A DNA stretch of 64,000 nt, taken from positions 1-64,000 of the IMG/VR virus record IMGVR_UViG_3300025912_000012. The stretch is one strand, 5' to 3'. Shown one piece after another: positions 1 to 64,000 of this stretch; position 1 is the stretch's first letter, and each line of letters opens with the position of its first letter. The notes under the pieces were generated by a model, which was not told where the DNA came from, did no database searches, and worked only from the letters and a program-made list of their open reading frames with translations. The translations under genes and the position numbers were made by a program. This stretch comes from a virus. Taxonomy: Duplodnaviria; Caudoviricetes.

Positions 1-892
1 CTTGGGTTTGATAGTGTTTGGGGTGTTGGTCAGCACGGCCGCCAGCACGGCGGGAGCGGATACGCCGCTCGCCTCAGGAGAACATGCGCCACGTGGATGT
101 ACATGGTCCACGTGCCACCGCCCCGATGGGCTGGCGCAGTGGACACGCTACGGGTGAACTCTGCCCGTAGGTCAGACCCAGGCATCTATATCCACGCCTG
201 GGGGACACTGGAGGGTGATGTGCGGGACGGTCCCGTGACCTCTAGACAACCACGTAACACGTGCCAGGCACGCGATTACCTTGGCTATATGCCCAAAATC
301 GGTACCTGATCCTAGGTATCAGTCGGTAATCACTGAGTAACACGTGGATGCGTAAAGCGACGACAGTCCGCCCCAGACCTTGATGGGCATCTGTCTCACG
401 GTAGGGATACCGGGATTCAGAAGAATGCTCTGTGAGGCAACGGGTGACACGTCGGGGACAACTTTAGCAACGGTGTAGCCAGCACTTTGACGCTGGTGAA
501 CCGTATCCCCGGTAAACGTGTCATCTCGCGCTAGTGGGAATGGGGGACATACGGAAAACGGTTGGGTTGCGGGTAATTCCCGTTAGGCGAGATGCCTAGT
601 CACTAAAAGCATATCGTTGCAATTGGCAAAGCTTGCCGATCCTGCGAATTGGGTGAGGGTAAGCGATGCGCGAATAGCTTGCTATACGCGTTGCAACGCG
701 AGATGTTTCGCGTCCAAGAAATCACAAGTTGCCAGCGTAACCACGGTGGAGTATGCGTCACGGGAGTGAGAGCGACGATATGTAGGCTGGCATTGAACGC
801 GCCAGCGACGATTGAGCTACGCCCTAGCTCATTGTCAGCATGCACCCAACGCGACAGTTGACAGATGTCGCGAGTGGGAATCCCGTCACCAA
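1..892 (+). ncRNA. candidate large structured non-coding RNA / structured leader
   Basis: No convincing ORF. Continuous hairpins with G.U pairs on + strand (e.g. CTACGGG/CCCGTAG, CGCGAATAGC/GCTATACGCG, TGAGCTA/TAGCTCA, CGCGACA/TGTCGCG). Family unknown. Confidence 0.5.
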
Positions 893-61594: not shown

Positions 61595-61920
61595 ACTATC
61601 TCGCAGTAAGCATCCCCCACACAGGAGACACCTTCGCACAGGCATTCCTGTGGCTTGAAAGGTCTGCACGCGGTCTGGGTGTGCTCACCATCCTGGGAGT
61701 GTTCGTTTTCAGGATGGGAGCTTCCTGGAGGCATCTCCTGGAAATCTTCATCATCCTGATCCTCGGGGTGTGGTTCGTCCCGAGTATGGTCCCCCCGAAA
61801 GCCTCTGCGGTGATCGCGACGGTAAACACGGGGGGTGCTGCCGGTGCCACCGGGGCTTCCTGGGGGATGCTGGCACTGCTGGTCGCGCTGGTCGCGGTAG
61901 TCATATACGCATACAGGTAA
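61591..61920 (+). CDS. membrane protein (paralogue-like to upstream)
   Basis: Three hydrophobic helices. Confidence 0.75.
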   Translation: MNYLAVSIPHTGDTFAQAFLWLERSARGLGVLTILGVFVFRMGASWRHLLEIFIILILGVWFVPSMVPPKASAVIATVNTGGAAGATGASWGMLALLVALVAVVIYAYR

Positions 61921-62071
61921 AGGAACAGAAACATGAGCGGAACGGTAGACCGCAGGGGTACAAGCAAGGGCAGGAAGGTCGCAATCGTCGTGTTCATCTT
62001 CCTCGCGGTCGGGGTTGTCATGGACGGGGCACACCACTGGCATCTGCTGCATCAGTTTCTCGGGCACTGAC

Positions 62072-62227
62072 ATGGACGCGAAGGTTATCGCCGGGTGGCT
62101 TGCGCTCGCGCTGGTCATCTTCTGGGTGGTTCTGAGCCCCACGAGCGCTGCGCATGTGGTGCATAACATCGGAACGTTCCTCAGCAGTGCAGCGGACGGG
62201 ATCATGAATTTTTTCAGCAAAATCTAG
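62072..62227 (+). CDS. small membrane protein
   Basis: MDAKVIAGWLALALVIFWV... Confidence 0.75.
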   Translation: MDAKVIAGWLALALVIFWVVLSPTSAAHVVHNIGTFLSSAADGIMNFFSKI

Positions 62228-62228
62228 T

Positions 62229-62257
62229 TTGACAGCACTCCGGTGGCATGGTATCTT
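62229..62257 (+). promoter_or_regulatory. strong promoter of the tRNA array
   Basis: TTGACA-17-TATCTT with TGn extended -10. Confidence 0.8.
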
Positions 62258-62263
62258 GGTTCC

Positions 62264-62350
62264 ATGACCACCAAGCGTGCGAAACTAGCGACAGGGCGAC
62301 AGTCGTCGTCTTGGTGCGCGTTCACGCATCCTAGGTGGCTCCCTGGTTAG
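62264..62350 (+). CDS. putative leaderless leader peptide (28 aa)
   Basis: ATG 6 nt after the -10; MTTKRAKLATGRQSSSWCAFTHPRWLPG*. Confidence 0.65.
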   Translation: MTTKRAKLATGRQSSSWCAFTHPRWLPG

Positions 62351-62415
62351 GGGAAATAATCCTCTAGACAGGGAGCCCGCCAGGAGAGTAAGATTCTCAC
62401 CTGACGGGCTCTTTT
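62337..62415 (+). terminator. attenuator: antiterminator 62337-62377 overlapping terminator 62373-62415
   Basis: Two hairpins share GAGCC; the second is followed by TTTT. Confidence 0.72.
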
Positions 62416-62428
62416 CAACTGCATATAT

Positions 62429-62500
62429 GGGGAGATAGTTCAACGGTCAGAATTTCCGGCTCCAACCCGGAAGATGTGGGTTCGAATCCTACTCGCCCTG
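62429..62500 (+). tRNA. tRNA-Trp(CCA)
   Basis: Cloverleaf, loop CTCCAAC, GGTTCGAATCC. Confidence 0.88.
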
Positions 62501-62589
62501 CGTTACGCCTCTCGTACAGGCTTGCTAAATTGAAAACTACATCTTTTCAGTACAGGTCGGGGGACGGGTTGTGGTACCGTCCTCCGCAT

Positions 62590-62663
62590 GGGCTGCTAGC
62601 TCCAATTGGCAGAGCAACTCCTTTGCACGGAGAAGGCTATCGGTTCGAATCCGATGCGGTCCA
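62590..62663 (+). tRNA. tRNA-Ala(TGC)
   Basis: Cloverleaf, loop TTTGCAC, G3.U70. Confidence 0.92.
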
Positions 62664-62664
62664 C

Positions 62665-62862
62665 GTGGCAGATAAGAAACTATCAGATGACCTGATTCGC
62701 TGGATCAGGACAGTCAATCTCCCCCAGCGGGTGGTTGCGCACCAGCTGAAACGTAATCACGGGATCACGGTTGACCAGTCACTGATATGGCAGATCAGGG
62801 CAGGCAAGAAATACGCAGACGTTTCAGCTGTCCCCCCGCTTGACACTCTCGGGGATAGCTGA
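62665..62862 (+). CDS. small HTH-like protein within the tRNA array
   Basis: KLSDDLIRWIR...VDQSLIWQIRAGKKY resembles HNH-associated HTH tails. Confidence 0.55.
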   Translation: MADKKLSDDLIRWIRTVNLPQRVVAHQLKRNHGITVDQSLIWQIRAGKKYADVSAVPPLDTLGDS

Positions 62863-62928
62863 TAGATTTCCTCTCGTTCCCCCGTTGACTTGCTCCTCAG
62901 GAGCACTCGGGGTTCTCGGGGGAACACA

Positions 62929-63002
62929 TGCCAGCTCGTCTAACGTAAGACACCCGTCCTGATAAGACGGGAGATGGTGATAGCGTAATTCACCGCTGGC
63001 CC
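62929..63002 (+). tRNA. tRNA-Ile(GAT), atypical T-loop
   Basis: Loop CTGATAA, D-arm and acceptor GCCAGC/GCTGGC; T-loop TAGCGTAAT lacks TTC. Confidence 0.65.
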
Positions 63003-63005
63003 TAT

Positions 63006-63078
63006 GGGGCTGTAGCTCAGCTGGCAGAGCACCTGCATGGCGTGCAGGGGGTCCGGGGTTCGAGTCCCCGTCGCTCCA
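63006..63078 (+). tRNA. tRNA-Ala(GGC)
   Basis: Canonical cloverleaf, G3.U70. Confidence 0.93.
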
Positions 63079-63100
63079 CGCAAAAGCGAAGGAGAAAAGA

Positions 63101-63232
63101 ATGGCTAAGAGCAGGGTCAGGAAATGGCTAGGGACTGACGTATCGCTCCGCAAGGCAATGATCTTCATGGTGTTCGTGATGGTTGCCTTGTTCTTGCTCG
63201 CGGTATTCGGGGTGATACAGCCCAGCAAGTAG
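63101..63232 (+). CDS. small membrane protein
   Basis: SD AAGGAG; one TM helix. Confidence 0.65.
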   Translation: MAKSRVRKWLGTDVSLRKAMIFMVFVMVALFLLAVFGVIQPSK

Positions 63233-63274
63233 TGTTAATCAGGATCGAGGAAGACGGTAATCTGCCGCGTGGAG

Positions 63275-63772
63275 ATGGACACTCACCTGAAGGGCGAGTT
63301 CGCTGTCCTGAAGGTCTTGATGCGAGCGGTAGAAAAAGGCTGGATAGCTAGTCGTCCGACCCGAGAGTGCCGATACGATCTAGTGCTAGATGATAAGGTT
63401 AAGCTCTATCGAGTTCAAGTTAAGTATGCTAATCGGCTAGCATCTCACACTAAAGGAGCGATTCATCTAGCTCTTACGCAAAGTGGAATAAGAAAAAAGA
63501 ATCCCTACCTAGATAGCGAAGTGGATGCACTAATTGTCTACATCGCACCAGCAGACATGTTGATCTGGCTAGAGACAAGTCATTTCCACAAGAAACGACA
63601 GCTCCATATTAGATATGAACCAGGCAAAAATAAGCAGAGGCAGGGAATTCTTCTTGCTGAGAATTACATTTGGTTAGCGGCTTATAGTGTAAGGGTAAGC
63701 GCGCTGGTCTCGGGGACCAGCAGACCAGGTTCGAGTCCTGGTAAGCCGACTAGGCAAGCCACGTGCCTTTAG
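63275..63772 (+). CDS. PD-(D/E)XK homing-type endonuclease (I-Ssp6803I-like)
   Basis: KGEFA...RYDLV...RVQVK...Y...EVD; AT-rich relative to flanks. Confidence 0.85.
   Translation: MDTHLKGEFAVLKVLMRAVEKGWIASRPTRECRYDLVLDDKVKLYRVQVKYANRLASHTKGAIHLALTQSGIRKKNPYLDSEVDALIVYIAPADMLIWLETSHFHKKRQLHIRYEPGKNKQRQGILLAENYIWLAAYSVRVSALVSGTSRPGSSPGKPTRQATCL
63678..63749 (+). tRNA. tRNA-Pro(CGG)
   Basis: Acceptor CGGCTTA/TAAGCCG, loop CTCGGGG, GGTTCGAGTCC. Confidence 0.88.
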
Positions 63773-63817
63773 CTGCCACCCTTGCTAGCAGGTTGAACGG
63801 GCAGCATGTGGCACCAT

Positions 63818-63888
63818 CCGGATGTAGTGAAGGGGTAAAACGCCAGCCCTGGGAGCTGGAGTCGGAGGTTCGAATCCTCCCATCTGGA
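63818..63888 (+). tRNA. tRNA-Pro (TGG by stem register, C33)
   Basis: Acceptor CCGGATG/CATCTGG, stem CCAGC/GCTGG, loop CCTGGGA. Confidence 0.82.
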
Positions 63889-64000
63889 CGCAGCTGAGTT
63901 CTCCCCCCTGTAAGTTCAGCTGTAATATGATGCGCATGAAAAGATCAGTATCCCGGGCGACTCAGTGGAGACTGGAAACGGTCTGTTGAGGCTCAGAGAT

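Follow-up and report, generated by a model that had tools for sequence, protein, structure and literature searches.

The head of the tRNA array of a soil phage very likely carries a cis-acting terminator/antiterminator switch directly before tRNA-Trp, as judged from a clade of closely related leaders. We conclude that the attenuator is real and that it is probably read by a ribosome; for the full reading, a ribosome-read transcription attenuator which heads a phage tRNA operon and follows the plan of the leaderless attenuators with three hairpins in actinobacteria, we see even chances. Attenuation is a known mechanism, of which we regard the element as a novel variant; its use on tRNA transcription was not found in print. 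The window (the whole stretch of 64,000 nucleotides that was analysed) covers the initial 64 kb of an IMG/VR phage record of 135 kb, whose completeness is estimated at 88%. The tRNA array comprises 35 ARAGORN-called tRNAs on a single strand (62429-73402, 11 kb), and the leader stands at its head. The element is small (∼190 bp) and self-contained, with the following parts:

62229..62257, + strand: promoter P1, with the -35 element TTGACA (62229-62234), a 17-nt spacer, the extended -10 TG (62249-62250) and the -10 element TATCTT (62252-62257)
62264..62350, + strand: leaderless ORF of 28 codons encoding a candidate leader peptide, MTTKRAKLATGRQSSSWCAFTHPRWLPG, stop codon TAG at 62348-62350
62266..62341, + strand: hairpin A (putative anti-antiterminator, 'regions 1:2'), -35.6 kcal/mol, with ORF codons 1-6 paired with 62325-62341
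62342-62372: hairpin B, in the fold of the RNA 62264-62428
62330..62384, + strand: putative antiterminator (extended hairpin B, 'regions 2:3'), with 62330-62345 paired with 62369-62384, -36.4 kcal/mol
62373..62415, + strand: predicted intrinsic terminator T ('regions 3:4'), stem 62373-62411, -23.1 kcal/mol, U-tract 62412-62415
62416..62428, + strand: spacer of 13 nt, containing a CAACTG box (62416-62421)
62429..62501, + strand: tRNA-Trp (CCA), the first gene behind the switch, 59.7 bits

The TTGACA-17-TATCTT promoter claimed by the original prediction was found in its place; it matches the consensus at 10 of 12 positions, has a TGn extension and is among the two best promoter matches within 58000-64000. 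By canonical spacing from the -10 element, the predicted +1 of P1 is the A of the ATG at 62264. The coordinates of the leaderless 28-codon ORF and the count of 22 different codons in it were likewise borne out, as was a terminator that ends in TTTT 13 nt before tRNA-Trp. A hairpin had also been described at 62337-62377; it exists, but RNAfold gives it 9 + 7 = 16 bp rather than 18. It does overlap the terminator; for the full antiterminator the overlap is 12 nt instead of 5, as nucleotides 62373-62384 (12 nt of the 5′ arm of the terminator) are common to the antiterminator and the terminator. Hairpin A inside the ORF and the full antiterminator (62330-62384), whose helix encloses an invariant inner hairpin at 62348-62366, are additional to the features described before. 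The 165-nt leader RNA (62264-62428) folds into the three hairpins with -76.5 kcal/mol (z = -6.5), a value that none of 200 shuffles equalled.

We compared six versions of the leader: that of the window (G000), L102, L101, L103 (identical to L104), L105 and G004; all except G004 are referred to below as the five close versions. L102, L101, L103 and L105 were found by scanning soil metagenomes with the neighbouring membrane protein, and the same scan returned L100, in which this protein is 100% identical and the leader is identical to that of the window. G004, an 87-kb IMG/VR contig, was found with a ribonucleotide reductase query (71% identity) and has the same tRNA order. The identity of the membrane protein in the relatives is 91, 91, 76, 66 and 35-37% (37% in G004), and all five further leader versions are syntenic, flanked by the same membrane-protein gene on one side and by tRNAs in the same order on the other. 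Every one of the six has a consensus promoter, ATGAC at +1, an ORF of 26-28 codons, three hairpins, a terminator, the CAACTG box and a Trp(CCA) tRNA. The promoter is of the P1 type, with 6 nt to the ATG, also in L102, L101, L103 and L105, and reads TTGACG-18-TACTAT, with 7 nt to the ATG, in G004. The CAACTG box, between the U-tract and tRNA-Trp, is invariant even in the very diverged G004 and may be a processing signal. The Trp(CCA) tRNA behind the leader scores 29, 28.4, 28.4 and 23.8 bits in L101 (2558-2628), L103 (5189-5259), L105 (5208-5278) and L106 (4933-5004), respectively; these four copies are at or below the Rfam tRNA threshold and were missed by ARAGORN, while the copy in the window is canonical.

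Two features of the ORF are kept throughout the six versions: it is open from ATG to TAG, and its stop codon comes immediately after the 5′ arm of hairpin B, which is true of G004 as well, although the sequence around it differs. Insertions and deletions within the ORF are of -6, +3 and net -6 nt, whereas those in the loops of B and T and in the U-tract amount to 1-2 nt; thus all three events inside the ORF are multiples of three compared to none of ∼5 outside, the pattern expected of a translated frame, with the reservation that the events are few. The encoded peptides are MTTKRAKLATGRQSSSWCAFTHPRWLPG, MTTKRAKLAAGRQPSSWCVFTHPRWLPG, MTTKIAKLAAGRQPSSWCAFTHPGWPLG, MTTKSVKLAAGQQSWCVFMHPRWPLG and MTSKSVKLAAGQQSWCFPFTHPRWLPD, and MTTHAAIQRGTSLPWHAFKQPEDLSG in G004, whose ORF also shows a synonymous change of ACC ACC to ACT ACG. 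Substitutions in the ORF fall on codon positions 1, 2 and 3 in the numbers 5, 8 and 6; this lack of a third-position bias indicates that the peptide as such is not conserved. Frame 2 of the leader is likewise open for ∼22 codons. Judged by the alignment, the ORF is kept as a frame and not as a peptide, which is expected if translation of the leader matters rather than its sequence, and is also compatible with a non-coding RNA.

The case for the switch comes from covariation in both alternative helices. Among the five close versions, 6 of the 14 pairs of the terminator helix show compensatory changes with 100% pairing (alignment A4), and a U-tract of 4-6 is kept. In the antiterminator helix three pairs are changed on both sides and 99% of positions are paired, compared to 41-61% in slid controls. 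The two sets of changes meet, decisively, on nucleotides common to both helices: L101 and L103 depart from the window at 62373 (G to A), 62374 (A to G) and 62377 (C to U), and the changed nucleotides still pair both with 62341/62340/62338 in the antiterminator and with 62411/62410/62407 in the terminator, in L101 by Watson-Crick changes and in L103 partly by wobble. The changes at 62340-62341 disrupt the last two pairs of hairpin A, indicating that selection favoured the antiterminator there. Hairpin A itself is present in all six folds, but its 28 pairs show no compensatory change across the five close versions. Independent events behind the covariation are few, and two sub-clades share the B-arm variant, which recombination may explain. 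When the first 40 nt are masked, the antiterminator state differs from the terminator state by +1.2, +1.5, -3.9, -0.8 and +0.4 kcal/mol in the five close versions, so the two states are predicted to be nearly isoenergetic. In G004 the ORF and an analogous terminator are present, but hairpins B and T do not overlap and there is no sharing with an antiterminator.

We then asked how the position of a ribosome would affect the fold. The ribosome was modelled as a 30-nt footprint masked along the ORF, and the RNA was folded. In the window, the terminator probability is 0.81 without a ribosome. With a ribosome on codons 1-10 it is between 0.03 and 0.43, and at most 0.13 at eight of these codons; once the ribosome is at codon 22 or beyond, as far as the stop, it is 1.0. 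The same three states appear throughout G000, L102, L101 and L103 (0.81-0.94 unmasked, at most 0.15 at most of codons 1-10, and 1.0 from codon 20, 21 or 22 on, according to the version), and when the RNA behind the ribosome is also blocked the range of read-through extends to ∼codon 19. When the upstream 109 nt were replaced by dinucleotide shuffles, such three-state behaviour arose in just 3 of 300 cases. The trp-style logic of the original prediction is therefore reproduced in silico in four of the six versions, but not in L105, where the terminator dominates at equilibrium and the three-state pattern is absent, nor in G004, where the probability of T is at least 0.56 at every ribosome position because B and T do not overlap there. 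Termination enforced by a ribosome at the end of the ORF is the robust prediction of these folds. In folds of the growing transcript the antiterminator is partly formed even without a ribosome, which makes the outcome in the absence of translation uncertain.

According to the model that we prefer, the P1 transcript would begin at the A of the AUG at 62264, which would make it possible for a 70S ribosome to load with no need of a Shine-Dalgarno sequence. Leaderless initiation could, however, be hindered by hairpin A, in which nt 3-9 of the transcript are paired. If no ribosome loads, hairpin A would sequester region 2 (62330-62345), the terminator (62373-62411 plus UUUU) would form and the transcript would stop 13 nt upstream of tRNA-Trp. 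Fast translation would also lead to termination, with a ribosome at the last codons or the UAG (62348-62350) covering region 2. A ribosome that lags or stalls within about the first 10-19 codons would open hairpin A and free region 2, which would pair with 62369-62384 and take up 12 nt of the 5′ arm of the terminator; with the terminator disabled, RNA polymerase would proceed into tRNA-Trp, tRNA-Ala and the remaining array. As the leader ORF has no run of regulatory codons, the signal sensed would be slow translation in general and not the shortage of a single amino acid. The start site, the translation of the ORF, the coupling to polymerase and the physiological trigger are parts of this model that we infer, and translation of leaderless mRNA by the host is assumed in it.

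Could the same features arise without a ribosome reading the leader? The strongest competitor, which we consider unlikely, is a real RNA switch in which hairpin A is a sensor arm that a protein of phage or host, an RNA (e.g. a tRNA) or a small ligand stabilises or opens, or else a finely balanced terminator whose constitutive leakiness fixes the level of read-through, the ORF being a structural by-product. The covariation that backs the two alternative helices is silent on the trigger, the peptide sequence is unconserved without a third-position bias, and regulatory codons are absent, all of which would suit such a switch, as would the invariance of GAAACUAGCG in hairpin A and of the inner B hairpin in the five close versions. 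The leaky form in particular fits the energy balance and the partial antiterminator seen without a ribosome. What the ribosome-read attenuator accounts for better is the joint retention of an ATG at +1, the frame, indels in multiples of three in the ORF only, and the position of the stop codon in all six versions including G004; moreover, no Rfam family, the T-box included, matches the leader in the window or in the relatives. Somewhat less probable still is a self-contained small gene, consisting of a promoter, an RNA of ∼150 nt (an sRNA and/or a micropeptide of 26-28 aa, W-x-[AV]-F-x-[HQ]-P) and its own terminator, with the tRNAs transcribed by residual read-through and from the two further promoters within the array, P2 and P3. 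The layout of promoter, hairpins and terminator is typical of sRNA genes, G004 lacks the switch yet keeps the ORF, the hairpins and a terminator that is unconditional, the clades have W..AF..P..L.G in common, and action in trans is known for attenuator RNAs and peptides (rnTrpL/peTrpL; PMC6614838, PMC7968998). However, a plain sRNA gene leaves unexplained why selection should act on an antiterminator helix that destroys the gene's own terminator, tRNA-Trp lies 13 nt past the U-tract with no promoter of its own, and the peptide evolves almost freely in the close clade.

Two further explanations have little weight. In phage lambda, PR′, 6S RNA and tR′ form a unit in which a strong promoter gives a short terminated transcript ahead of a long operon, and antitermination by Q is brought about by a trans-acting protein that modifies the polymerase. 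The phage leader could be a unit of this type, with a constitutive promoter giving a short terminated RNA until a processive antiterminator of the phage modifies RNA polymerase: the phage operon, 11 kb on one strand, likewise opens with a strong promoter that is followed ∼150 nt downstream by a terminator, as in the PR′/6S RNA/tR′ layout. We hold this to be very improbable, since the covarying antiterminator helix that the phage leader has in cis would be superfluous; in addition, neither PF06530 nor PF03589 has a match (E up to 0.1) in the 135-kb record, which is weak evidence because the record is 88% complete and other antiterminator families exist. The least probable explanation, to which we give almost no credence, is chance, i.e. 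a promoter-like site, a fortuitous ORF and hairpins unrelated to one another, the terminator being that of the genes upstream. In its favour, promoter-like and terminator-like sites are not enriched across the region, and the upstream gene has its stop at 62227 without a terminator of its own. Against it, the whole unit is conserved in six diverged sequences with covariation, the z-score of the fold is far from that of shuffled RNA and switch-like shuffles are rare (3/300).

Among known mechanisms, that of the leaderless three-hairpin leader-peptide attenuators of actinobacteria is the closest. The ilvBNC operon of Corynebacterium glutamicum has a leaderless three-hairpin leader-peptide attenuator in which boundary nucleotides are common to the antiterminator (AT) and the terminator (T), and for which a "rapid low-energy transition" was described (PMC11857589), in line with the small energy differences of the phage leader. 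With ilvBNC and the enterobacterial trp, his, leu and thr attenuators, the phage leader shares a promoter-proximal short ORF at the 5′ end of the RNA, three hairpins corresponding to an anti-antiterminator, an antiterminator and a terminator, boundary nucleotides common to AT and T with states that are nearly isoenergetic, and a stop codon set so that a terminating ribosome would cover the 5′ arm of AT. It differs from them in its putative targets, which are phage tRNAs and not amino-acid biosynthesis genes, in having neither a run nor a conserved pair of regulatory codons, and in its longer peptide (26-28 aa), which is largely embedded in hairpin A.

Attenuators that sense a general inhibition of translation are also known, for example bmrB-bmrCD of Bacillus subtilis (PMC4191407) and, for mef/mel, leader peptides that respond to antibiotics (PMC4335068). 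Like these, the phage leader combines a short ORF with a terminator and an antiterminator, and the signal that we propose is a slowed ribosome rather than a specific amino acid; unlike it, they control resistance transporters, have ORFs led by a Shine-Dalgarno sequence and respond to drugs. Slowed ribosomes are reported to be sensed without amino-acid-specific codon runs by bmrB (PMC4191407) and by mycobacterial leaderless sORF attenuators (bioRxiv 10.1101/834739). The polycysteine leaderless sORF attenuators of mycobacteria act on translation by sequestering the RBS and have runs of Cys codons (bioRxiv 10.1101/834739). The sORF as the first cistron, the actinobacterial setting and, as proposed here, the selection of alternative RNA structures by the position of the ribosome are common to them and to the phage leader, whereas the phage switch would act on an intrinsic terminator and has no codon run. 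T-box leaders (RF00230), which report tRNA status, also switch between a terminator and an antiterminator, but they control synthetase and amino-acid genes and not tRNA genes. The phage leader has no match to RF00230 (E up to 10 in 61500-64000; E up to 1 in L101, L103, L105 and L106), and no specifier loop or T-box sequence was seen in it.

Phage tRNA arrays are usually discussed as aids to codon usage or as a counter-defence against tRNA-cleaving nucleases, and little is known about the control of their expression. Only one accessory array has been studied well, the trn operon of Anabaena PCC 7120, a long tRNA array that is silent until translation is impaired and is co-regulated with rtcB (PMC8421152); the repressor TrcR binds direct repeats at its promoter (PMC10272220). 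In both systems accessory tRNAs lie near or are co-regulated with RtcB and their expression is tied to translational stress (in the phage, as proposed here), but the Anabaena array is under a promoter repressor, and the words leader and terminator are absent from the text of PMC8421152. In agreement with the original prediction, whose author was not aware of such an arrangement for phage tRNA clusters, our full-text literature searches found no attenuator described before phage tRNA genes. If true, the model would widen the range of attenuation, known from amino-acid operons, to include the decoding machinery, and it provides a testable model for "tRNAs on demand".

The genome setting bears on this idea. 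Upstream of the array are genes for small membrane proteins, an SLT-like transglycosylase and an RtcB RNA ligase (56582-57751; PF01139, E = 1e-107), the last on the same strand 4.5 kb upstream of the array, and this proximity fits a module for tRNA repair and resupply. The best isolated-phage matches of the ribonucleotide reductase are those of actinophages, namely Actinomycetia phage DSL-LC01 (51%), which has 3 tRNAs only, and Mycobacterium phage Gaia; together with the relatives from soil metagenomes, these matches make an actinobacterial host likely. It is a tentative and rather doubtful further step to regard the leader as a translation-speed sensor by which the phage would open its own tRNA transcription only when host decoding falters, e.g. 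after tRNA cleavage by an anticodon nuclease or upon starvation, jointly with the upstream RtcB; on this reading it would be a virus-encoded sensor that couples damage by defence systems to the resupply of tRNAs.

The original prediction had gone further and seen in the ORF a broad codon sampler that monitors the tRNA supply of the host. This part did not hold, as codon diversity, codon rarity and the match of amino acids to the array are all within chance. At least 22 distinct codons occur in 31.5% of the 28-codon windows of this phage's genes, so the count in the ORF is ordinary, and its CAI-like value (0.65 compared to a gene mean of 0.74) is at the 14.5th percentile; on these grounds a 'rare-codon sampler' was rejected. 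The first 20 tRNAs of the array cover W, A, P, F, G, K, L, Q and T, a set that includes 19 of 27 ORF residues (binomial p = 0.033). With a correction for the choice of array prefix, however, an equally good match is found in 7.2% of random stop-free windows, and we rejected the idea that the ORF mirrors the codons or amino acids of the array. The ORF lacks D, E, N, I, V and Y, as do 0.9% of windows; this was not accepted as evidence, the residue set having been picked post hoc. Any ORF would 'sample' an array in which nearly all amino acids are represented by tRNAs. In the earlier reading, both the codon sampler and the link to anticodon nucleases are speculation.

Next, we considered how far along the array the switch could reach. 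Three further features matter here:

62590..62664, + strand: tRNA-Ala (UGC), the second tRNA behind the switch, with no other ahead of the next promoter
62840..62868, + strand: promoter P2, TTGACA-17-TAGATT, inside the array
genome 71769-71797 (L003 11770-11798): promoter P3, TTGACA-17-TAGGGT, inside the array

Sites of the form TTGACN-16..18-TANNNT number 8 in the whole 135-kb genome, and three of them (P1, P2 and P3) are within the array. P2 has no ATG at +1 and no terminator behind it, and the +1 of P3 is ∼5 nt before tRNA-Met (71809). Being inside the array without an ATG or a terminator, P2 limits what the switch alone controls: only tRNA-Trp and tRNA-Ala(UGC) rely on P1 alone, and P2 and P3, as predicted promoters, can express most of the array regardless of the switch. 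Thus, of the proposed control of the tRNA array, the location of the switch before tRNA-Trp stands, but control over the whole array is doubtful, as P2 and P3 lie downstream of the switch.

Similar leaders, which the original prediction had suggested seeking before other actinophage arrays, were found in five versions in soil metagenomes and IMG/VR, but isolated phages gave matches of tRNAs only when 62000-62700 was used in blastn, and no match of the neighbouring membrane protein in tblastn. A covariance model built from the five close leaders found no further copy, either in the window or across genome 60000-78000, a region that includes the array. The model did not reach the G004 leader, so that its homology rests on synteny, the promoter, ATGAC, the TGG..GCGTTCA.GCA.CCT block, TAG and CAACTG. 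Within IMG/VR, none of the loci reached with the SLT-like protein and with RtcB was syntenic, a pattern of the hairpin stem returned 8 unrelated hairpins, and two leader patterns returned G004 only or no match. The GTDB genome contigs yielded no relative, and Rfam recognized only tRNAs in the leader regions of the window and its relatives, with no family for the leader.

Several minor observations concern the first part of the array. In G004 (L097 9310-9490), the second promoter, TTGACA-17-TAGGTT, is followed by hairpins and by a terminator-like sequence, CCCCGCC..GGCGGGG CTTTTCT, directly before tRNA-Ile; this region may be a second promoter-leader-terminator unit, which is absent from the window. 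At 62930-63000 the window has a cloverleaf whose anticodon loop, CUGAUAA (tRNA-Ile GAU-like), is 7 nt long and whose T loop is 9 nt long, preceded by a strong hairpin at 62876-62925. This cloverleaf was missed by ARAGORN and Rfam, while its counterpart in G004 is called tRNA-Ile by ARAGORN (L097 9492-9563). A 65-aa ORF (62665-62862) without a Pfam match starts directly after tRNA-Ala(UGC), and its end overlaps P2. Finally, an ORF for a PD-(D/E)XK endonuclease (63269-63772; PF11645, E = 7.5e-21) lies within the array and is AT-richer than its flanks; its frame overruns tRNA-Pro(CGG) (63678-63750), and it is probably a mobile insertion.
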